Virus genome (UHGV): UHGV-0107525
From: a virus
DNA length: 11,430 nucleotides
Reading direction: 5' to 3' (one strand)
Positions 1,530 through 11,430 of the stretch are shown here, piece after piece; position 1 is the first letter of the stretch; every line of letters starts with the position of its first letter. The notes beneath the pieces were generated by a model that was not told where the DNA came from, did no database searches, and saw nothing but the letters and a program-made list of their open reading frames with translations. The position numbers and the translations under genes were made by a program.

Positions 1530-1922
1530 ATGGAACAAATCAGCAGCGCAGAAATTGCGGATATCATGATCAGGGCTGACTGCTATCTGACAGTCACTGA
1601 AATTACCACTCTAGCTAAAGAAAAATATCCTCACCTTCATGTTTCACGCGTAAGTGTAACCAACATCATTCGGCATTTTGTGCGGTCAAGCCGAGCTATT
1701 TGTGAGCTTGATGATCGTGTTTACCCACGGAAATACTGGTTGCATGGCCTGAACGGATATCAGTTCAAGGTGCGCGGGCGCACCCCTGAATACGGCAGTT
1801 TGCTGGTTAAAAACTGTAGCCGGAAGTCTGCAGAACTGGCGCGACAAGAGCAGCGCAAGCTGGTGGACATGGCTAATAAGCTGTGGAATGCCGCAGTTAA
1901 AAAGCGTGGTGTTGCTTTATGA
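1530..1922 (+). CDS. Putative small DNA-binding protein (winged-helix-like), immediately upstream of and overlapping pacA
   Basis: ATG at 1530 with GGGGGA 4 nt upstream; stop overlaps the pacA ATG (ATGA at 1919-1922). Helix-turn-helix-like segment LTVTEITTLAKEKYPHLHVSRVSVTNIIRHF followed by a wing-like YPRKYWLHGLNGY. P1 has its late-promoter activator lpa in this position, but homology could not be verified. Confidence 0.5.
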   Translation: MEQISSAEIADIMIRADCYLTVTEITTLAKEKYPHLHVSRVSVTNIIRHFVRSSRAICELDDRVYPRKYWLHGLNGYQFKVRGRTPEYGSLLVKNCSRKSAELARQEQRKLVDMANKLWNAAVKKRGVAL

Positions 1923-3283
1923 GCCTTGTTAATTGGGAAGAGCACCGCGCCAAATTTATAGCGTTGCGTGAAGAAAAAGGGATCACCGTAAAGGAATACT
2001 GCGAGCAACACGACCTTAGCTTCAATACCGCCAGAAAGCATCTCAATATGAAAAAAAATGAGGTGCGGTCGCAGGTGAAGACTACAAAAAAAAGCACCAA
2101 ATCACCTGAAAAAAAACGGGCAGGAAGAGCAAAAAAAAGGCCAGAAGAGGGTACAGAAACAACAAAATTTACAGAAACTGACAATTCACAGAGCGGAAGT
2201 TCTTTCCGGAGCATGCCGAGAAAGAAAACTTCGGATCATAAAAATAACGACAATAATAACAATGAGATAAAAGAATCTGTCAGGAGATCATTGCGCGAAA
2301 AAATGGCGAAAATGATCCCCACCGAAGATAAATGCGCCTCAAAAATCGAGGGATCTTCAGCAATGATCCCTGGCGGTGCTGTGCAGCGTGCCACGTTGCC
2401 CACTACGAGTGTGGCTCGCGACATGATGAAGAACGGCGCAGAAGAGCACCTGCGGTTAGCAATTCAAATGGCGCAAGAACGCGCACTTCAGTACCAAAGC
2501 ATTGTTGATCAGGAGGCCGAACGCCTACAGGCGGAGATAGACGCCCTGGGTGATGAACAGCCAGAAGGAATGCACCCTGGGCAGCGACTTCTCGGTCTAA
2601 TCAGTGACGCGGCCTACTACATGAACGATTTTATCAGTAGGTTGGCAGCGATATATCAGTCCGAACAAAAGCTGCGACAGGGTGATGAAAAACTTCGTCA
2701 GGGTGCTCGCCAGCAAGCATTCAGAGAGGCCGAGGCCAGAGAAAAACTCGAATTAGCACGCCTACAGGCCGAACAGCGTGGCAAAGAGATTGAATATCGC
2801 ATTGGCGCTGACGCACGCGCAGCCAGAGTTATCGCCGCCGCTATACGTATGCGTGAGCGCGAGGAGCTGGACGATATCGGTGTTGCTGAATACATCGAGC
2901 GTCAGGGTGTCAGTGTCCCGGCTATCCTCGCGGCGCGCGCGGCGAAAGCTATCACTCTTCTCGAACCTCCAGTTTCTGACATCAATGATGTTGATGATGA
3001 ACAGCTGGACAAAGAAGCGAAGGAGTTTGCATCGCTTCAGGCTAACCATCCGCAATGGCTGGCAGAGCGCCGGGCGGATGTGGCAACCATTGTTGAAGAT
3101 CTGGGGTGCGGAGATTACGACCACAATGGCGAGCGTAAGGCTGGGGAATTCGAGGCCAACGACGAAGAGTTGGATATTGACCCTTCGGCTACGGATGAAA
3201 TTTACGGTGATTATGATGCATCAGACGCAGGATATGACGCCGGAGATGATGATATCGCGATAGAACCGCCGGAGGACGACTAA
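1919..3283 (+). CDS. pacA: Terminase small / pac-recognition subunit PacA-like
   Basis: 454-aa protein with N-terminal HTH-like region, lysine-rich linker, coiled-coil-like Ala/Arg/Glu-rich middle and strongly acidic C-terminus (DDDIAIEPPEDD). Stop overlaps the start of the large terminase gene (TAATG). Contains an internal GATC cluster, as P1 pacA contains pac. Confidence 0.8.
   Translation: MSLVNWEEHRAKFIALREEKGITVKEYCEQHDLSFNTARKHLNMKKNEVRSQVKTTKKSTKSPEKKRAGRAKKRPEEGTETTKFTETDNSQSGSSFRSMPRKKTSDHKNNDNNNNEIKESVRRSLREKMAKMIPTEDKCASKIEGSSAMIPGGAVQRATLPTTSVARDMMKNGAEEHLRLAIQMAQERALQYQSIVDQEAERLQAEIDALGDEQPEGMHPGQRLLGLISDAAYYMNDFISRLAAIYQSEQKLRQGDEKLRQGARQQAFREAEAREKLELARLQAEQRGKEIEYRIGADARAARVIAAAIRMREREELDDIGVAEYIERQGVSVPAILAARAAKAITLLEPPVSDINDVDDEQLDKEAKEFASLQANHPQWLAERRADVATIVEDLGCGDYDHNGERKAGEFEANDEELDIDPSATDEIYGDYDASDAGYDAGDDDIAIEPPEDD
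2233..2369. other. Candidate pac (packaging initiation) site: cluster of five Dam GATC hexamers inside pacA
   Basis: GATC at 2234, 2286, 2314, 2352 and 2365 within about 136 bp, in hexamers GGATCA, AGATCA, TGATCC, GGATCT, TGATCC; ATGATCCC occurs twice. P1 pac is a methylation-regulated cluster of TGATCA/G hexamers within pacA. Confidence 0.4.
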
Positions 3284-4791
3284 TGGCTGGTGGGCGCAAG
3301 ATTAAATGCGTCACCAGCGATCCACGCTGGCGCGATATGGTAATCAAATACCGCTACAACTTTACCCAGGCTGTTGTTGATATTTTCGGGATGTTTCCCT
3401 CCCACCAGCAGCAGGAGATTATCCAGTCCGTACAGCAAAAAGGGAGCAGAACCACTGTTACTTCTGGTCACGGTACAGGGAAATCGTCGTTAACAGCTAT
3501 GTTGTTGCTGATTTATTTGATTCTGTTCCCCGATGCCCGTGTCATCATTGTTGCTAACAAGATAGGCCAGGTTAAAACAGGGGTATTCAAATACGTTAAA
3601 CAGTATTGGGCGAATGCAGTTAAGCGTCACGGGTGGTTACAGACCTATTTTGTCCTGTCTGACACCATGTTTTATGAACGTTCCCGCAAAGGGATCTGGG
3701 AAGTTCTCTGCAAAGGTTATCGACTCGGTAACGAAGAAGCACTGGCGGGGGAGCACGCGGCACATTTGCTTCTAATTCTGGATGAAGCATCAGGCATATC
3801 TGATAAAGCGATCGGCGTAATGACTGGCGCTCTGACTGAAGAAGATAACCGAATGTTGATGCTATCCCAGCCAACAAGGCCAAGTGGTTATTTCTACGAT
3901 TCGCACCATTCTCAAGCTAAAACCCCAGACAACCCGAAAGGGATCTGGACAGCAATTGTTCTTAACTCAGAAGAATCACCGTTCGTCACACCACAATTCA
4001 TCAGGCAGAAACTCCTGGAATATGGCGGGCGCGATTCTATTGAGTACATGGTCAAGGTTCTTGGTCAGTTTCCTCGGGAGATTAACGGCTATTTGCTTGG
4101 TCGTGATGAATGCGATCGCGCTGCGCGGCGCAAGGTGTTGTTGGAGAAAAACTGGGGATGGGTGGCTACTGCTGACGTTGGTAACGGGCGAGACAAGTCA
4201 GTTCTTAATATCTGTAAAGTGTCTGGTCACCGGGAAAAGCGGCGTGTTGTTAACTTTAAGGTAATGGAAATGCCAGGGACTATGGACCCGCTGGCTTTTG
4301 CTGACTTTATATACAACGAATGCACACCGGATAAATACCCGAATATTACAATCGCGGTTGACGCAGACGGTTTTGGTTCAGATACCTGTGCGCAGCTGGT
4401 GCGCCGTGGGGCTAATCCGGTACGGATTCGGTGGGGGAAACCCATGTTTTCGAACAAAGACAAGGAGCGTTTTGTTAACCAGCGTGCCTACGCAAATATT
4501 ATGGCTCGTGATGCCATAAAGTCAGGTCGTATGCGAATAGACAGCGACCCTAAAACGGCAGAGCAAGCGTCAAAAATCCCCTTTTTACTTAATGAAGAAG
4601 GGAAGATGGCGATGATGCGCAAGGAGCACATGCGGCAAAAGCTGAACATCAAATCACCTGACCGATGGGATACCTACTGCTTTACAATGCTGGTGGACTA
4701 TGTTCCTGCTAATGAAGATATCGGCGCTGAAATGGCTACCTTCCGCGATCAGGTTCTTGCAGATGTGGAAATGCCAGATCTGGATATATAA
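3283..4791 (+). CDS. pacB: Terminase large subunit PacB-like (ATPase plus nuclease)
   Basis: 502 aa. Walker A-like TSGHGTGKSS, Walker B-like LLLILDEASG, and C-terminal acidic clusters typical of the RNase H-like terminase nuclease domain (VATADVGNGRD, IAVDADGFGSD). Immediately follows pacA. Confidence 0.9.
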   Translation: MAGGRKIKCVTSDPRWRDMVIKYRYNFTQAVVDIFGMFPSHQQQEIIQSVQQKGSRTTVTSGHGTGKSSLTAMLLLIYLILFPDARVIIVANKIGQVKTGVFKYVKQYWANAVKRHGWLQTYFVLSDTMFYERSRKGIWEVLCKGYRLGNEEALAGEHAAHLLLILDEASGISDKAIGVMTGALTEEDNRMLMLSQPTRPSGYFYDSHHSQAKTPDNPKGIWTAIVLNSEESPFVTPQFIRQKLLEYGGRDSIEYMVKVLGQFPREINGYLLGRDECDRAARRKVLLEKNWGWVATADVGNGRDKSVLNICKVSGHREKRRVVNFKVMEMPGTMDPLAFADFIYNECTPDKYPNITIAVDADGFGSDTCAQLVRRGANPVRIRWGKPMFSNKDKERFVNQRAYANIMARDAIKSGRMRIDSDPKTAEQASKIPFLLNEEGKMAMMRKEHMRQKLNIKSPDRWDTYCFTMLVDYVPANEDIGAEMATFRDQVLADVEMPDLDI

Positions 4792-4816: not shown

Positions 4817-5854
4817 TTACCAGAGTTTAGCGGCGTGCTGTGTTTGGGAGAAAGTGAACCCGTAACGTTCTTCTATGGTTTTACCGTATCTTTTCCGCGC
4901 GTCTGTCAGTTTTATGCCTGTCAGGTCATCTCCGGATGTCATCATTACGTCTAACAACTCCAGATCCATTTTATTCAGTCGCGCCATCGCTTCGCGTGCT
5001 GTCTGTATTTTACGCTCAATGATATGGCGAATAGCCGGATCGGCTTCCTCAAGCATTTTGGCTGATTTGTTCTTTAAGCTCTCATTGCGGATGTCGATGT
5101 TTCGCAAGATGTATGACTTCGCAACATAGCTTGGTTGGTGTTTCTCCAGATCGCGAACGCGATAGAGACTAAAGTCACCAAGCAGGCCGCAAGGTATCGA
5201 CTCAACCCCAGAATAAATAGTAATGCTGCGACGTTCGCCGACATTATTAACAACGGGCACTGTGGTGTTCGGAAGTTTTGCGAACACTAAGGCTCCGTGT
5301 GCGCCTACCCTGAATCGTGACAGAGCATTGCTGCCTTCAATGTTTGTTGTAAGCACTACATCTGTGTATCCATCTTTGCGCGCCCGGTAAACTTCCCCTT
5401 CAGGTTCTGATGCGAAAAAACGGCGCTCTTCTTCAAGTGCACCAACAATCTGCGAAAATATCTTGTTTTTCAGGCTTTTCTTTATAATTGCATCATATTT
5501 TTTGAGCAGATTTTCGCGCGTAAATGAGCGGGTGGTGGTCGCGCTTTGCACAACAATATGCGTGCTTTGATTTGTGTCCTCGATAATGAATGGGATCGGA
5601 GAATATACAGACTCAACAATGTTAGACGCTTTGCCGTCAGCGTTACGGCACAAGTCAACAAAGGCTTTCCATTCTGTGAGGCACTTTTCAGCTTCTTCTA
5701 GCACATTCTGATCATGTGTTAGTGCAACATGGCGGAATTCCTCGCCGGAATAACTGGTATCATGGAAAACAGAGTTTGCGACCACCAGCTCTTTCCACCG
5801 TTCAGCGGTTTGCAGGAACCGTTTGTACTCTTTCTCGATCGACTTCTTACTCAT
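4817..5854 (-). CDS. Hypothetical 345-aa protein in the position of the P1 c1 immunity repressor (possible C1-type repressor)
   Basis: Long - strand ORF convergent with pacB, AGGA-type RBS 4-5 nt upstream of the ATG (RC of 5852-5854). Placement between pacB and the lox-type site/recombinase matches P1 c1. The functional call is by synteny only; no recognisable HTH. Confidence 0.4.
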   Translation of the reverse strand: MSKKSIEKEYKRFLQTAERWKELVVANSVFHDTSYSGEEFRHVALTHDQNVLEEAEKCLTEWKAFVDLCRNADGKASNIVESVYSPIPFIIEDTNQSTHIVVQSATTTRSFTRENLLKKYDAIIKKSLKNKIFSQIVGALEEERRFFASEPEGEVYRARKDGYTDVVLTTNIEGSNALSRFRVGAHGALVFAKLPNTTVPVVNNVGERRSITIYSGVESIPCGLLGDFSLYRVRDLEKHQPSYVAKSYILRNIDIRNESLKNKSAKMLEEADPAIRHIIERKIQTAREAMARLNKMDLELLDVMMTSGDDLTGIKLTDARKRYGKTIEERYGFTFSQTQHAAKLW

Positions 5855-6047: not shown

Positions 6048-6059
6048 TAAATTTCTAAC
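6048..6059. repeat. Copy of 12-bp motif TAAATTTCTAAC abutting the rox-like site
   Basis: Identical 12-mer also at 7272-7283; 9-bp core shared with 5873-5881. Confidence 0.3.
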
Positions 6060-6087
6060 TTTAGATAATTGGCATTATTTAAAGTTA
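6056..6087. other. rox-type recombination site (Dre target; lox analogue)
   Basis: TAACTTTAGATAAT-TGGC-ATTATTTAAAGTTA: 14-bp inverted arms around a 4-bp spacer. The reverse complement matches the rox site as I recall it (TAACTTTAAATAATGCCAATTATTTAAAGTTA) at 31 of 32 positions, with one arm mismatch. Lies 152 bp upstream of the Cre-family recombinase gene. Confidence 0.85.
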
Positions 6088-6096
6088 GTATATAAT
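6069..6096 (+). promoter_or_regulatory. Sigma70-like promoter overlapping the rox spacer and right arm, directed toward the recombinase gene
   Basis: -35 TTGGCA (6069-6074), 16-bp spacer, -10 TATAAT (6091-6096). Two GATC sites follow at 6100-6103 and 6109-6112. A second -35-like TTGACA at 6116-6121 has only a weak -10. Confidence 0.45.
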
Positions 6097-6239: not shown

Positions 6240-7268
6240 ATGAGTAAACTTATTATCTCCGGTAATCCTGGCATGTTTCTTCGTGATATTGGTGCTGAGT
6301 ACCAGGAAGCCGCCAAAAATTTCATGCAGTTCCTTAATGACCAGGGCGCTTACTCACCTAATACACTGCGCGATCTGCGCTTGGTCTTTCACTCCTGGGC
6401 GCGTTGGTGCCACGCTCGTGGTATTGCGTGGTTTCCGATCTCCCCGGAAGCTGCCCGCGAATACCTGCTTCAACTGCATGATGCGGATCTGGCTTCAACC
6501 ACCATTGAAAAGCATTACGCCATGCTCAATATGCTGTTGTCACAATGCGGACTGCCGCAACTCTCTGATGACAAAAGCGTATCCCTGGCGATGCGGCGCA
6601 TCCGGCGCGAAGCTGCAACCGAAAAAGGCGAACGCACAGGCCAGGCTATACCGTTGCGGTGGGATGATCTGAAATGGCTCGACGTGTTGCTGTCCCGTTC
6701 CGAGCGGCTGGTGGACCTGCGCAACCGGGCGTTTCTCTTCGTGGCATACAATACCCTGTTGCGTATGGCTGAAATGTCCCGCGTGCGTGTTCGCGATCTG
6801 GAACAGACTGGTGACACTGTAACGCTTCACGTATCCCACACCAAAACCATCACGACCGCCGCCGGACTTGATAAGGTGCTCTCCCTCCGGACAACTGCGG
6901 TTCTCAATGACTGGCTGGACGAGTCCGGACTACGTGATCACCCGGATGCGATACTTTTCCCGCCAGTACACCGGAGCAACAAAGCGCGGATCACCACCAC
7001 GCCACTAACCGCGCCCGCGATGGAGAAGATTTTCAGTGACGCCTGGGCGCTGCTTGGTAAGAGTGATGCCACCCCAAATAAAGGCCGTTACCGGACGTGG
7101 ACAGGCCACAGTGCGCGTGTTGGTGCCGCCATAGATATGGCTGAAAAACAGGTGTCTTTGGTTGAAATTATGCAGGAAGGTACATGGAAGAAGCCCGAAA
7201 CACTGATGCGTTATCTTCGTCGTGGCGGTGTGACAGCAGGTGCCAATAGCCGCCTCATGGATTCATGA
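6240..7268 (+). CDS. dre: Cre-family tyrosine recombinase, Dre-like
   Basis: 342 aa. Aligns along its length to P1 Cre as recalled, with conserved blocks (FPISPE, AFLFVAYNTLLRMAE vs Cre AFLGIAYNTLLRIAE, WTGHSARVGAA vs WSGHSARVGAA) and catalytic Arg, His-x-x-Arg, Trp and Tyr (LMRYLRR) in place. GAGGTG RBS 10 nt upstream. Adjacent rox-type site supports Dre. Confidence 0.92.
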   Translation: MSKLIISGNPGMFLRDIGAEYQEAAKNFMQFLNDQGAYSPNTLRDLRLVFHSWARWCHARGIAWFPISPEAAREYLLQLHDADLASTTIEKHYAMLNMLLSQCGLPQLSDDKSVSLAMRRIRREAATEKGERTGQAIPLRWDDLKWLDVLLSRSERLVDLRNRAFLFVAYNTLLRMAEMSRVRVRDLEQTGDTVTLHVSHTKTITTAAGLDKVLSLRTTAVLNDWLDESGLRDHPDAILFPPVHRSNKARITTTPLTAPAMEKIFSDAWALLGKSDATPNKGRYRTWTGHSARVGAAIDMAEKQVSLVEIMQEGTWKKPETLMRYLRRGGVTAGANSRLMDS

Positions 7269-7271
7269 GAT

Positions 7272-7283
7272 TAAATTTCTAAC
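7272..7283. repeat. Second copy of 12-bp motif TAAATTTCTAAC, between dre and the downstream operon
   Basis: Exact 12-bp match to 6048-6059, located 4 bp after the dre stop. Confidence 0.3.
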
Positions 7284-7342
7284 ACACCTTTTTAGATTGT
7301 TATCTTTGCTGTAAAGTACCCTCTCCTATTTCGGAGGGTGCT

Positions 7343-7687
7343 TTGCAGAGTCAAATCACGGAATCAAGACGCTTTAAGGTTGATGGTTACACCGTAACCT
7401 TCGCCGCTGGTGTTAAGAACAGTCATGCTGTCGTTGTATTTGGCATCATGACCGGACTTGAGGCCGTCCCTGTGTTTACCCTCGAAAAAAACTGGCGAAA
7501 TCTGGAGGAAGCGGAAAGCTACGTCCGGAGAGTAACCATCGCTGCCGCCGAAAAACTCCTGTCCCACTATCAGGAAAATTATCGCACTATGGTCGAGAAG
7601 ATTAATCTCGCTTTCACTCGCCCCACTACAGGCTTTATCGCCCCGGAGACTAATGCAGGTCGCTATCCTGCAAGGGGGCGTCGGTGA
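7343..7687 (+). CDS. Hypothetical protein (114 aa), first gene of the accessory operon
   Basis: ORF from a TTG start with GGAGGG 4 nt upstream; stop overlaps the next gene's GTG start. The start codon is uncertain. The antisense ORF 7364-7702 is less likely given operon polarity. Confidence 0.4.
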   Translation: MQSQITESRRFKVDGYTVTFAAGVKNSHAVVVFGIMTGLEAVPVFTLEKNWRNLEEAESYVRRVTIAAAEKLLSHYQENYRTMVEKINLAFTRPTTGFIAPETNAGRYPARGRR

Positions 7688-8160
7688 AAAATTATTACCC
7701 ATCTCTGAATTGTTACCCGTCTTCGTATCCGGAATTGTCCGGGAAGCTGTTAGCTCTATTGGCTAAATCACCAACTGAATGGTTTAAGCCTGTCGTTATC
7801 AATCCGCACTTCCTGGATTACGGATCTGTTCGCACTCGTAACGAACTCAAAAACCTGCTGGCGCATGGATTCATTCGACACCGTGCCGGGAAAGGCTATC
7901 AGTTAGCGATTTCGCCAGAAGAGGCCGTGCAGCTATTCGCATATCGTGACAGCCAGACAAAAGCACGGGTAATAGCTCAAATACTTCATAACGGCAGCAC
8001 CTATGCCCGCCAGTTTGGCGGCGACACGTCGCAGTTCTTGCGGGCTGTGCGATCGCTGGAAGAACAAGGAGTTATTGAAAGTTCCTGTCTTCCTGTTCCT
8101 ACCGTTCCACATATCAAACGTCGGGTTTACACCTTCACGCAGAGAGCTAAAAAACAATGA
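7684..8160 (+). CDS. Hypothetical protein, possible winged-helix DNA-binding protein (158 aa)
   Basis: No internal Met, so the GTG at 7684 (AAGGGGG RBS about 7 nt upstream) is the likely start. Wing-like IRHRAGKGYQLAI and helix TSQFLRAVRSLEEQGVIE. Stop overlaps the dUTPase ATG (ATGA). Confidence 0.5.
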   Translation: MKNYYPSLNCYPSSYPELSGKLLALLAKSPTEWFKPVVINPHFLDYGSVRTRNELKNLLAHGFIRHRAGKGYQLAISPEEAVQLFAYRDSQTKARVIAQILHNGSTYARQFGGDTSQFLRAVRSLEEQGVIESSCLPVPTVPHIKRRVYTFTQRAKKQ

Positions 8161-8651
8161 TTTACGTAAAAGTGAAACGCCTACATCCGGCAGCAAAACT
8201 TCCAGCTTATGCCACTGCCGGATCGGCGGCGATGGATTTTGAGGCTATTGAAATAACACCGTGCGTCGATAGCAATGGTGCAATTTCCTCAAGCTGGTGG
8301 GTGCATACCGGGCTGGCTATGGAGATCCCGCCCGGCTGGTGTCTGAAACTCTATCCGCGTTCCGGATTGGGCTGCAAAAAACATACTCGCCTGGCTAACT
8401 GCGTAGGAATTATCGACTCCGATTATCGCGGTGAAATCATGGCAAAACTGATTACTGATCCCGGCGGTGAAGGCGTTTGCCTCAAGCCAGGAATGGCGGT
8501 CATGCAAGGCATTTTTGAGCGTGTTGAACAAGTCTCTCTGGTCGAAGTTGAGGAACTCAACGAAACGGAACGTGGTGCTGGTGGCTTTGGTAGCACATCA
8601 GAAGGCCGCTTTGAAATTAAGCGTTCACCGCTTCAGTACGAAAAGTTATAA
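8157..8651 (+). CDS. dut: dUTP diphosphatase (trimeric dUTPase)
   Basis: Five dUTPase motifs recognisable in order: ATAGSAAMDF (motif 1 variant), YPRSGLG, GIIDSDYRGE, MAVMQ, RGAGGFGSTS. Confidence 0.85.
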   Translation: MIYVKVKRLHPAAKLPAYATAGSAAMDFEAIEITPCVDSNGAISSSWWVHTGLAMEIPPGWCLKLYPRSGLGCKKHTRLANCVGIIDSDYRGEIMAKLITDPGGEGVCLKPGMAVMQGIFERVEQVSLVEVEELNETERGAGGFGSTSEGRFEIKRSPLQYEKL

Positions 8652-8665
8652 GCAGAGGAAAGACT

Positions 8666-9343
8666 ATGGCTAGCATAGCAACGAAAGAGCTTTTTAGGTT
8701 CATTCCCAAATACAAAGCTCACAAAATCGTTAGTGCATCGAAAATCAAAAATGTTGTTATTTTCGGAGTAACTGATACCCCACTTTGGGGCAGCATCGAA
8801 CTCGTTGAGCCAAAAGGGGCAACAGTTTGTGTTGACGCAATGTTTTTACAAAAACACCGACCAAAAACTGGCGGGTATCTGATCGTTTATGAAAACGGTT
8901 ATCTGTTCTATGCCCAGGAGAAACCATTTGAGGAATGCTATGCCCTGGTTAACGACGCCTCCGAAAATGGAACCACGGTCATCATTACGGATGACAACGG
9001 CGTGATGACTAATCTTACCGGGAGCGTAACTATTTCTGCTGGTGGCATCACTACTCAGCAAGAAGAAATCGACCTTGAAGCAGCCGACTTTTCTGACGCG
9101 CTGATGTGGCTGAAGGAAGGAAAGAAAGTTGCTCGACGCGGGTGGAACGGCGAAAACCAATTCTGCTGGCTGGTTCCTGAAGGACAGTACCCAGCACGAA
9201 TGGAAGCCATTAAGGGATATTTCCCCGGCGACCTCGTTCCGTATGGTGCTTATTTCGCCTTAAAAAATGCACAAGGTGTAGTTGTTCCGTGGGTGCCTTC
9301 GGTAGGCGACTTACTGGCGTGTGACTGGTTTGTAGTGGAGTGA
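8666..9343 (+). CDS. DUF2829-domain fusion protein (Tad2-like C-terminal domain, unknown N-terminal domain)
   Basis: C-terminal about 85 aa FSDALMWLKEGKKVARRGWNGENQFCWLVPEG...VVVPWVPSVGDLLACDWFVVE matches the DUF2829 signature (F-x-x-A-L-x-x-L-K-x-G-K-K-V-x-R-x-G-W-N-G ... D-L-L-A-x-D-W). GAGGAAAG RBS before the ATG at 8666. Confidence 0.75.
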   Translation: MASIATKELFRFIPKYKAHKIVSASKIKNVVIFGVTDTPLWGSIELVEPKGATVCVDAMFLQKHRPKTGGYLIVYENGYLFYAQEKPFEECYALVNDASENGTTVIITDDNGVMTNLTGSVTISAGGITTQQEEIDLEAADFSDALMWLKEGKKVARRGWNGENQFCWLVPEGQYPARMEAIKGYFPGDLVPYGAYFALKNAQGVVVPWVPSVGDLLACDWFVVE

Positions 9344-9349
9344 TTTGAC

Positions 9350-10117
9350 ATGGAAAGCACCAAAACAATTCAATACCGCTTGCGTAATGGCCTGCTGGTG
9401 GCTGTTAACGCTGATATGTCACTGCCGTTTGACACGATAGAACGCACTATCATGACGTATCTCGGCTTTAATGAAGAGCTGAATGAAGAGCATGGCGTAG
9501 CTATATGGAGTGATGCAGACAGCGGCGTTCGTCGTTACATCACTGCCAGAGGCAAAGACTACTCTCTGGAAGAACTGTTTACCCTTGCGCAGTCTTTCGA
9601 ATGTGTAGCATTGGACCTGTTTAATGATCCTGCTATAGCGCAACGACTTATCCGCGATCTTGGACTGTCGGTTACCCCAATTATCTTTAAAAATGGCAGC
9701 CTGACTGGCACATGGCGCGTAGAACGCATCTCAAACTACCTTCCATATAACCGACAGTTAAATGGAGTAATCTCCGGCGTTAATCAGCCCGTAGCGTGTG
9801 AAAATGTAAACCTGGTTGTCGCTGTTTTGGCAACCGCATGTCGTGTTATCGGTTTGGCTAAACAGGCATTTATTCATTTCCCAAATGGTGCAGAAGGTAG
9901 CGCAGAGATTATCGCGTGTGATTTCGAATTTACCTGGATGCTACGCGAATATCTGGACCAAACAGTATTCCGTGCCGAAGAACTGGATATGTATATCACG
10001 TCAACGATTCCAGACGATGTGCGAGCTGAAGCAATCGCTACAGCCAGGGCGAAATGCCGTGCGGCGATTGCAGAACAGGCCAAAGAAGAAGTTAAGGAAG
10101 TGGCAGATGGCGACTAA
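9350..10117 (+). CDS. Hypothetical protein (255 aa) with acidic C-terminus, translationally coupled to the terminase-like pseudo-ATPase
   Basis: ATG at 9350; acidic tail AEQAKEEVKEVADGD; stop at 10115-10117 overlaps the downstream start at 10107 by 11 nt. No recognisable catalytic motifs. Confidence 0.6.
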   Translation: MESTKTIQYRLRNGLLVAVNADMSLPFDTIERTIMTYLGFNEELNEEHGVAIWSDADSGVRRYITARGKDYSLEELFTLAQSFECVALDLFNDPAIAQRLIRDLGLSVTPIIFKNGSLTGTWRVERISNYLPYNRQLNGVISGVNQPVACENVNLVVAVLATACRVIGLAKQAFIHFPNGAEGSAEIIACDFEFTWMLREYLDQTVFRAEELDMYITSTIPDDVRAEAIATARAKCRAAIAEQAKEEVKEVADGD

Positions 10118-11201
10118 GAGCAATATTTATAAAGATCCGCGCTGGCTGTCGCTGGTGGAGAAATATAAAGACAATTGGGTACTGGCAGCAAAAGAATTGT
10201 TTGATATTGATTTAAGCCACCAGCAACAACAAATTGTTGAAGCTATACAGCCCAACAATGCAAAAGCTACTGTCACCACTCCGTATGGGATCGGACGACC
10301 GCAAGTGCTTGCTGTTATTAGTACCCTTTATACGATTATGTATCCTGATTCCCGGACAGTAATTGTTTATCCAAAATCAAATGTTTGCAAAAGAGGAATT
10401 GTTGCATATGTGTGGCAATGTTGGGAGGCATTGCTGAAAAAACAACCTTTTATCATTGAGTATTTTAAGGTCGGTGATAGCGGTCTGATGTTCAATGAAT
10501 TTTGGGGAATGTGCTTTTGTAACTACCGCCTTAACTATGAAGATAGCATTGCAGGTCACTACGCCGACCATCTTTTATTCATTATTGTGGATTCCGTACA
10601 TATCAGCGATCGGGCATACAGCATTGTGTGGGCAAGCATGACTAGTGGTGATTCACGCATATTGCTCACTTCAATTCCGTCACCAGAGGAAATAGGCTTT
10701 TTTTATGATTCACATCATGGACGTGCTTTAGCTGAAGATAATCCGAGTGGTGTATATAAAGCCATTAAGCTGAGTGCGGAGGATTCACCATTTATTACCC
10801 AAGAATATCTTGATCATTTTGCCGAAAGGTATGGCGGGCGAAATAGTGATGACTATCGTCGTATGATTCTTGGTGAGTTCCCTGGTATTAGGGAGGCTGT
10901 TCTTGAATCAGATATGCCGAAGACAATGCGCTTTTCGATGCCTGATGGTAGTGAATGGACAATGCCATTACGAGTGATAGCCCGGCATCATGCGCAGCAC
11001 CACGCCAAAAAACATGGCGTCACGACATTAGAATGGTTGAAATCGCACACTATTCCACTCTTCACTGCAGATCACAATGCTATCGTTGAGTGGGCAAAAA
11101 CAATTCCGTGGGAGCATGTCGCTGAATATGCTCACATGCTGAAGCCTCCGAAAGACAGACACGAAATTAGCTGGCTGACAGCAGAAAAAATCATTGAGTG
11201 A
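10107..11201 (+). CDS. PacB (terminase large subunit) ATPase-domain paralogue with degenerate Walker motifs and no nuclease domain (predicted pseudo-ATPase)
   Basis: Start at ATG 10107 (AAGGAAG RBS 6 nt upstream) rather than the track's upstream 9816. The first ~250 aa align without gaps to PacB 3283-4791 (blocks DPRW, SHQQQ, TVT, PD-R-IV, HLL-I, G[YF]FYDSHH, DNPxG, ESPFxT, YGGR, LG[QE]FP). Walker A GHGTGKSS is replaced by PYGIGRPQ and Walker B ILDE by IIVD. The C-terminal ~110 aa are unrelated to the PacB nuclease domain and His-rich (RHHAQHHAKKHG). Confidence 0.8.
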   Translation: MATKSNIYKDPRWLSLVEKYKDNWVLAAKELFDIDLSHQQQQIVEAIQPNNAKATVTTPYGIGRPQVLAVISTLYTIMYPDSRTVIVYPKSNVCKRGIVAYVWQCWEALLKKQPFIIEYFKVGDSGLMFNEFWGMCFCNYRLNYEDSIAGHYADHLLFIIVDSVHISDRAYSIVWASMTSGDSRILLTSIPSPEEIGFFYDSHHGRALAEDNPSGVYKAIKLSAEDSPFITQEYLDHFAERYGGRNSDDYRRMILGEFPGIREAVLESDMPKTMRFSMPDGSEWTMPLRVIARHHAQHHAKKHGVTTLEWLKSHTIPLFTADHNAIVEWAKTIPWEHVAEYAHMLKPPKDRHEISWLTAEKIIE

Positions 11202-11207
11202 TAGTAG

Positions 11208-11238
11208 GAAGCCCGCCTGGTTGAGCGGGCTTCTTTTC
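11208..11238. terminator. Intrinsic terminator hairpin between convergent genes
   Basis: GAAGCCCGC-ctggttga-GCGGGCTTC: 9-bp perfect stem followed by TTTTC on the + strand; sits between the pseudo-terminase stop (11201) and the doc stop (11237-11239). Confidence 0.65.
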
Positions 11239-11430
11239 AAATATTGGAACCATATAGTTCACGTAGTTTTTCCGCTACTGAAGATACGGGGATTTCACCA
11301 GTTGCAGCCCCCACCGCAAGTTCCACCAGCACGGGAGAATCATATACCTGTATACCGTTACGGCGTAGAAATAGCAGCGCACTGTTTAGCGCGGTACGCT
11401 TATTGGCATCATTGAATATATGCCCTCTCG
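11237..11430 (-). CDS. doc: Doc toxin (Fic-family kinase of the phd-doc addiction module), 3' portion; N-terminus lies beyond the window edge
   Basis: Reverse-strand translation from the window edge gives RGHIFNDANKRTALNSALLFLRRNGIQVYDSPVLVELAVGAATGEIPVSSVAEKLRELYGSNI, containing the Fic/Doc motif HxFxDANKR and closely matching the C-terminus of P1 Doc as recalled. Not in the ORF track because the start is off-window. Confidence 0.9.
   Translation of the reverse strand, partial: RGHIFNDANKRTALNSALLFLRRNGIQVYDSPVLVELAVGAATGEIPVSSVAEKLRELYGSNI

Follow-up and report, generated by a model that had tools for sequence, protein, structure and literature searches.

The 11,430-nucleotide (nt) stretch analysed here (the window; UHGV virus genome UHGV-0107525, a D6-type phage-plasmid of E. 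coli) carries near its end a gene (10107–11201, plus strand) for a protein of 364 amino acids (aa). We find this gene to encode, very probably, a pseudoenzyme: an anciently duplicated version of the large terminase PacB's ATPase domain, in which the fold was kept, all three catalytic motifs were lost and the nuclease domain was swapped for a small, different domain. Judged from its sequence the protein cannot be a terminase, since the catalytic motifs are lost and the nuclease domain is absent. For the same reasons, the label 'terminase large subunit' given to the paralogue in public records (e.g. MH422554 7995–9089; protein P0002) is misleading.

For comparison, the parent-type gene pacB lies in the same window (3283–4791, plus strand). 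It is annotated as pacB/terminase in D6 and encodes intact SGHGTGKS, LDEASG and SQPT motifs, with weak, sub-threshold Pfam terminase matches. A BLASTP alignment of PacB with the 364-aa protein gave 37% identity over 258 aa (E = 1e-61), in line with a preliminary description of the window, made by eye, which had equated the N-terminal ~250 aa with the PacB ATPase domain. The protein also matches the phrog_5902 profile over nearly its whole length (E = 8.4e-164; residues 4–363 on profile positions 2–358 of 359). Structure prediction, which the same description had proposed as a check, points the same way: residues 1–260 (10107–10886, plus strand), here called the pseudo-ATPase domain, are modelled with confidence by AlphaFold (AF2; predicted local distance difference test, pLDDT, mostly >90), and the solved structures that the model matches best in Foldseek are large-terminase ATPase domains, from P74-26, HK97, T4, Sf6 and D6E.

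The substitutions in this domain fall on the catalytic motifs (all plus strand). In Walker A (TTPYGIGRPQ, 10275–10304), PacB GHGTGKSS has become PYGIGRPQ, with Arg64 for Lys and Pro65 for Ser, and in Walker B (LLFIIVDSVH, 10572–10601), LLILDEAS has become LFIIVDSV, with Val161 for Asp and Asp162 for Glu. Both replacements had been noted by eye and are borne out by our alignments, which add the loss of the coupling (C) motif (10662–10682), where LLTSIPS stands for LSQPT (SQPT to SIPS). To place these changes, 26 bona fide terminases and 14 paralogue sequences (13 of them distinct, as two Citrobacter copies are near-identical) were put into one alignment. SGHGTGK[ST], DEASG and SQPT are present in 26/26 terminases, whereas the paralogues all lack the Walker A Lys (its position reads R, Q, H, E, M, C, T or I), never carry an acidic residue where terminases have the Walker B Asp, and have all lost the coupling-motif Gln and Thr. 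When 40 conserved columns, each kept in at least 85% of 27 terminases, were compared with the 12 paralogues of the main clade described below, 18 were found retained (glycines, the QQ motif, and the hydrophobic and aromatic core) and 14 lost, including all three catalytic motifs and the invariant His before Walker B. A shifted register that would leave the Walker motifs intact, which the preliminary description had itself named as a possible objection, was looked for and ruled out: no intact motif was found, and the P-loop region of the window protein is devoid of Lys. Some relatives have a Lys at +1 (GQKT, GHKS, GCKH), but no Gly before that Lys.

Beyond the pseudo-ATPase domain, we found no RNase H-like nuclease domain in the 364-aa protein, and residues 261–364 do not align to the PacB C-terminus. 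Compared with a large terminase, the protein thus has the fold and the homology, and lacks Walker A, Walker B, the C motif, the nuclease and the pairing with a small terminase. The preliminary description had seen the nuclease replaced by an unrelated His-rich tail; the absence of the nuclease stands, the His-rich appendage does not. The tail (10887–11198, plus strand; ~100 aa with the pattern MPDGSxWxVP...PLF...WA...W..V), which stands in place of the nuclease domain, is a discrete domain of widespread, stand-alone early accessory genes and not a lineage-specific addition. In a search of 1.8 billion representative proteins, residues ~261–364 matched stand-alone proteins of ~100 aa at 33–39% identity, and with a profile built from these we retrieved at least 1,098 protein clusters. 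Conservation falls on Asp, Pro, Ala, Thr, Phe, Trp and Val positions and does not extend to the histidines. The domain also forms the C-terminus of phrog_17928, has no match in Pfam or PDB, and is modelled by AlphaFold with low confidence. In enterobacterial lambdoid prophages, the stand-alone genes are located in the nin region (replication genes to ninB) or early-left, beside int, with Ead/Ea22, DUF551 and, in one prophage, a Lar-type gene as neighbours, and the P1-like Cronobacter phage JK004 and Xanthomonas CP2-like phages likewise encode the domain as a gene by itself. It defines a large family of early phage proteins without a Pfam match. Two stand-alone members (P0075 and P0121) have Cys-rich N-terminal extensions with CxxC pairs, which suggests an added zinc-ribbon-like element.

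As the preliminary description had supposed, the paralogue is, by the pattern of its substitutions, old and maintained, not decaying. Its age follows from the tree and from synonymous divergence: in a neighbour-joining tree with the catalytic columns masked, 12 of the 13 dead paralogues form one clade (bootstrap 0.92) nested among PacBs, and synonymous divergence (dS) is saturated between the paralogue subtypes, of which there are three by identity (≥95%, ~65% and ~52%). Maintenance follows from the low ratio of non-synonymous to synonymous divergence (dN/dS) of 0.04–0.09 among close relatives, where synonymous changes far exceed non-synonymous ones (e.g. 29.5 vs 10.5), together with full-length, intact copies in 163 PLSDB plasmids, none with a frameshift or stop. 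The thirteenth sequence (P0057; 268 aa) falls outside the main clade; it, too, is a dead terminase ATPase domain and appears to be an independent inactivation. Another dead paralogue (P0027; 444 aa) carries a different, unannotated C-terminal region of ~180 aa, and for two short paralogues (P0023 and P0028) no genomic context was found in PLSDB.

Immediately upstream, an open reading frame at 9350–10117 (plus strand) overlaps the paralogue by 11 nt, as had been described. It encodes a 255-aa homologue of P1 IsaA (48% identity over 225 aa; phrog_2326, E = 2.2e-133), which shares with P1 IsaA both the PHROG and, in P1-type elements, the position relative to ssb/DUF2829. The suggestion that its acidic tail echoes that of PacA, the partner of PacB, did not survive comparison. 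The acidic C-terminus is short, variable across the family and absent in P0016–P0020, and the IsaA homologue has no similarity to PacA (BLASTP E = 14), which together rule out IsaA as an analogue of PacA or TerS. IsaA shows weak PD-(D/E)xK-like fold matches, and a PDB sequence search and a BFVD fold search gave nothing.

We predict from the gene junction that translation of the paralogue is coupled to the 3' end of isaA. A Shine-Dalgarno-like AAGGAAG (10094–10100, plus strand) lies within the isaA 3' end, 6 nt ahead of the ATG at 10107, and all copies of the 364-aa paralogue overlap isaA at its 3' end and have their own Shine-Dalgarno sequence. The overlap is 11 nt in the window, 14 nt in the 65% subtype and 8 nt in the P1 subtype, with an equivalent ribosome-binding sequence and overlapping start. 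In the window the paralogue frame is open for a further 99 codons upstream of the ATG (9810–10106), overlapping isaA, which leads some gene callers to extend the paralogue to 438 aa. As this extension is not conserved (4–12 codons in the other subtypes), it is probably a chance open frame, and its shortness there rules out an IsaA-paralogue fusion made by frameshifting or read-through.

The pairing of IsaA with the paralogue is frequent, not obligate, and is no echo of PacA–PacB, so that the idea of a two-gene 'terminase-like module' falls away. IsaA is found in 472 plasmids (454 full-length) against 163 with a full-length paralogue, and about two thirds of these plasmids lack the paralogue; SJ46 and RCS47 have isaA with nothing equivalent downstream, as do P1 and D6, which have isaA without the paralogue. 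Conversely, in a P1-like plasmid of Citrobacter freundii (NZ_CP114569 4333–5789), a tail-less dead paralogue of 263 aa (GIGCKH; FFICPNA) sits between ref and mat and overlaps, by 4 nt, an upstream gene for a Ref-family HNH nuclease in place of isaA.

The survey of P1/D6-like genomes that the preliminary description had called for confirms the paralogue as a recurrent gene and at the same time shows that it is optional. It occurs in ~22% of PacB-carrying plasmids and is absent from ~78%; among 5,426 complete E. coli genomes, 36 have a D6-type and 100 a P1-type paralogue, nearly all plasmid-borne. It is also absent from reference P1 and reference D6, which marks it as dispensable cargo. The window itself is 98.9% identical to pMTY12355_3 across the isaA and paralogue region, while reference D6 matches the isaA homologue alone of the pair and continues from isaA to pdcA-doc-phd. 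When P1 (NC_005856, 8500–10133) was compared with the IS1-free P1-like MH422554 (7800–9100), homology stopped right after the isaA stop codon, and in reference P1, unlike the window, IS1 and the unrelated isaB occupy the paralogue's place. Decades of P1 genetics missed the gene because IS1 at isaA had replaced the paralogue in the reference phage. We considered whether isaB might be a remnant of the paralogue and ruled this out, as the two have no similarity and P1 homology ends directly after the isaA stop codon. In previous work, isaA was non-essential in a CRISPR interference screen of P1 (PMC10695390), and the isaA region is a variable hotspot of P1-like elements (PMC6906374, PMC9603915).

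The order DUF2829/Tad2-like gene, isaA, paralogue recurs at two genome positions: behind dut in the recombinase operon (D6-type) and behind ssb (P1-type, e.g. Escherichia albertii p2RM10507). A Tad2-like gene is usually found upstream of the paralogue; it precedes isaA in the window and in some P1-type elements, and also in SJ46 and p2RM10507. A C1 operator is annotated at the ssb promoters of P1, which points to early lytic expression of the P1-type paralogue. We would accordingly place expression in the recombinase operon in D6-type elements and in the C1-controlled ssb operon in P1-type elements; no paralogue was found in a late morphogenesis/packaging operon.

Selective loss of catalysis, with the fold kept under purifying selection, suggests that the paralogue would act by binding and not by hydrolysis. 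No phage protein is sensed more widely in bacterial innate immunity than terminase, which is also a target of satellite and prophage interference; the sensors Avs1–3 and Upx recognise its ATPase domain. We tentatively propose that the paralogue is an early, non-catalytic mimic of the terminase ATPase domain with a host immune terminase sensor as its likeliest partner, a reading we regard as possible without holding it to be probable. As an early-expressed structural mimic, it would occupy a partner of the terminase ATPase domain; a sensor of the Avs1–3 or Upx type would be bound non-productively or held off PacB, and the C-terminal domain and IsaA might serve as accessory binding modules. A sensor fits best as the partner given the early timing, the hotspot location, the patchy distribution, the dispensability in laboratory hosts and the Tad2-like neighbour. 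There are precedents for sensor binding by such proteins. Avs2 is triggered by T4 vs.8, Ksap1 and Ksap2, for which a position in the Avs2 pocket is predicted, with direct binding to KpAvs2 shown for Ksap1 and Ksap2 (bioRxiv 10.64898/2026.04.30.721860; PMC11564622), and the authors speculate on an anti-defence origin of vs.8 and the Ksap proteins (bioRxiv 10.64898/2026.04.30.721860). The same study reports that Upx toxicity mostly withstood Asp-to-Ala mutations in the terminase Walker B and nuclease, and predicts that Upx binds core beta-strands (bioRxiv 10.64898/2026.04.30.721860).

Several observations weigh against a sensor as the partner. From published structures, SeAvs3 is reported to recognise active-site residues of the terminase together with bound ATP, and EcAvs2 to contact bound ATP via a bridging ATP; the paralogue lacks the features read by these two sensors and probably cannot present them. 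A mimic that is recognised early could also trigger the sensor instead of blunting it, as vs.8 and the Ksap proteins do. The proximity of a single Tad2-like gene counts for little as evidence, the link between IsaA and the paralogue is not obligate, and the coupling to a Ref nuclease gene in Citrobacter points towards DNA transactions instead. The paralogue has no match in PADLOC, Pfam or NCBIfam; PADLOC defence-protein models likewise gave no match for IsaA, the Tad2-like protein or the tail domain. A fuller scenario, which we consider rather unlikely as a whole, is that P1/D6-type phages duplicated the very protein that host pattern-recognition receptors sense, stripped it of catalysis and of its ATP-dependent recognition features, and deploy it early with IsaA and the Tad2-like protein as a blocker or shield against Avs1–3 and Upx. 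If this is true, a phage would here, for the first time, have made a dead mimic out of its own pathogen-associated molecular pattern. In any case, the paralogue offers a concrete and readily testable candidate for the manipulation of terminase recognition or packaging by phages and phage-plasmids.

Other partners are conceivable within the terminase itself. The dead domain could interfere with packaging by competing P1/D6-like phages, binding foreign PacA/PacB or poisoning the PacB ring in a dominant-negative manner. It retains the N-terminal helical segment and many core positions common to PacB, and the D6-type gene lies in the recombinase operon, whose counterpart (Cre) is active in P1 lysogens, as such a role would favour; inhibitors of this kind exist in prophages and satellites (TerI, Ppi and Gpi; bioRxiv 10.1101/2025.02.27.640495). 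We nevertheless judge interference unlikely. The paralogue is about equally distant from resident and foreign PacBs (33–38% identity), which would make it difficult for a carrier to escape poisoning itself, and no gene for self-immunity is apparent; in the lysogen, P1-type copies would be silent, since they follow the C1-controlled ssb promoters; and, without the PacB-type C-terminal domain, docking on the procapsid may fail. The same preserved surfaces, with expression that is early relative to packaging, would also suit a modulator of the phage's own packaging that sequesters PacA/PacB early and so times or limits pac cleavage. This we hold to be quite improbable, as P1 and D6 are fully viable without the gene, ~78% of PacB-carrying plasmids lack it, and it is located in hotspots with variable cargo (PMC6906374, PMC9603915).

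A role unrelated to terminase partners deserves some weight, though we lean against it: the paralogue could be a scaffold, or a DNA- or nucleotide-binding module, that delivers the tail domain or a nuclease-like partner (IsaA, Ref) to a target in the host or on DNA, for example in the control of recombination or replication early in infection. The tail domain belongs to a self-sufficient early-gene family, the coupled partners are a Ref-family HNH nuclease in Citrobacter and otherwise IsaA with its weak PD-(D/E)xK-like matches, the operon neighbours include ssb, dut and the recombinase, and the QQ motif and the P-loop glycines are retained. Finally, the missing catalytic residues and the absence of the gene from many relatives might suggest a decaying, functionless remnant of a duplicated pacB. 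We find this hardly credible, for the selection analysis effectively refutes it: dN/dS is 0.04–0.09, frameshifts and stops are absent from the 163 plasmids and across subtypes with saturated dS, and the Shine-Dalgarno sequence and coupled start are conserved.

No published description of the paralogue was found in our literature searches, although its family is already known as PHROG 5902; the nearest described proteins are vs.8 and Ksap2, and the paralogue is a dead, domain-swapped, lineage-wide version of a stand-alone, terminase-ATPase-like accessory protein. With PacB of P1/D6-like phages it shares the homologous ATPase domain, the N-terminal helical segment, the QQ motif, the P-loop glycines and a FYDSHH motif; it differs in lacking the catalytic motifs, the nuclease domain and a PacA-type partner, in being optional, and in its place in an early or lysogenic accessory operon. 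T4 vs.8 is likewise a phage-encoded, nuclease-less and lineage-restricted paralogue of the phage's own terminase ATPase domain (bioRxiv 10.64898/2026.04.30.721860). By its published description, however, vs.8 has preserved Walker A and B and acts as a trigger of EcAvs2, whereas the paralogue has lost both motifs, has an extra C-terminal domain and derives from PacB, not from gp17. Ksap1 and Ksap2 are also non-essential phage proteins, with predicted folds that resemble the terminase ATPase core (PMC11564622), but they are much smaller, have no detectable terminase sequence homology and are defined by Avs2 activation. TerI of Listeria prophages, Ppi of SaPI and Gpi of PLE resemble the paralogue in being encoded by mobile elements, and bind the packaging machinery; unlike the paralogue, they are small and not described as terminase-derived, and TERi has dedicated self-immunity genes.

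The remainder of the window provides the setting of the gene. Three open reading frames without assigned function (191, 130 and 130 aa; 454–1922) lie upstream of pacA (1919–3283, plus strand), which we assign as the small terminase-type partner of PacB by gene order and its overlap with pacB. A c1-type repressor gene (4817–5854, minus strand) follows pacB. A lox-like site with a 13+8+13 inverted repeat (6055–6088), coinciding in position with the annotated 'rox' half-site of D6, lies upstream of a gene for a Cre-like recombinase (6240–7268, plus strand); together, these presumably constitute the Dre/rox system of D6. The best sigma-70-like promoter (TTGGCA-16-TATAAT; 6069–6096, plus strand) overlaps the lox-like site and precedes the recombinase gene, and our sigma-70-like scan found no other good match up to 11201. 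Two small genes without assigned function come next, then dut (8157–8651, plus strand) and the gene for the DUF2829 protein (8666–9343, plus strand), whose C-terminal domain is Tad2-like (Thoeris anti-defence 2-like; PF11195, E = 1.3e-22) and whose N-terminal part of ~137 aa is without assigned function, followed by isaA and the paralogue. A terminator-like GC hairpin with a T-run (11210–11238, plus strand) stands immediately 3' of the paralogue stop codon. The single promoter, the tight or overlapping junctions and the terminal hairpin with its T-run indicate that the seven genes from the recombinase to the paralogue form one operon.

When the window was compared over 6240–11430 with the D6-type plasmid pEC361_3, this operon proved strongly mosaic, with DNA identity ranging from 49% to 98% in 150-nt windows. 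We considered whether the Tad2 domain, IsaA and the pseudo-ATPase domain change together as one co-evolving block in this comparison and set the idea aside: the block is not special, because mosaicism runs through all of the operon (cre dS = 1.1). Divergence is highest in the pseudo-ATPase domain (dN 0.42), and the tail domain and the downstream DNA are 93–97% identical.

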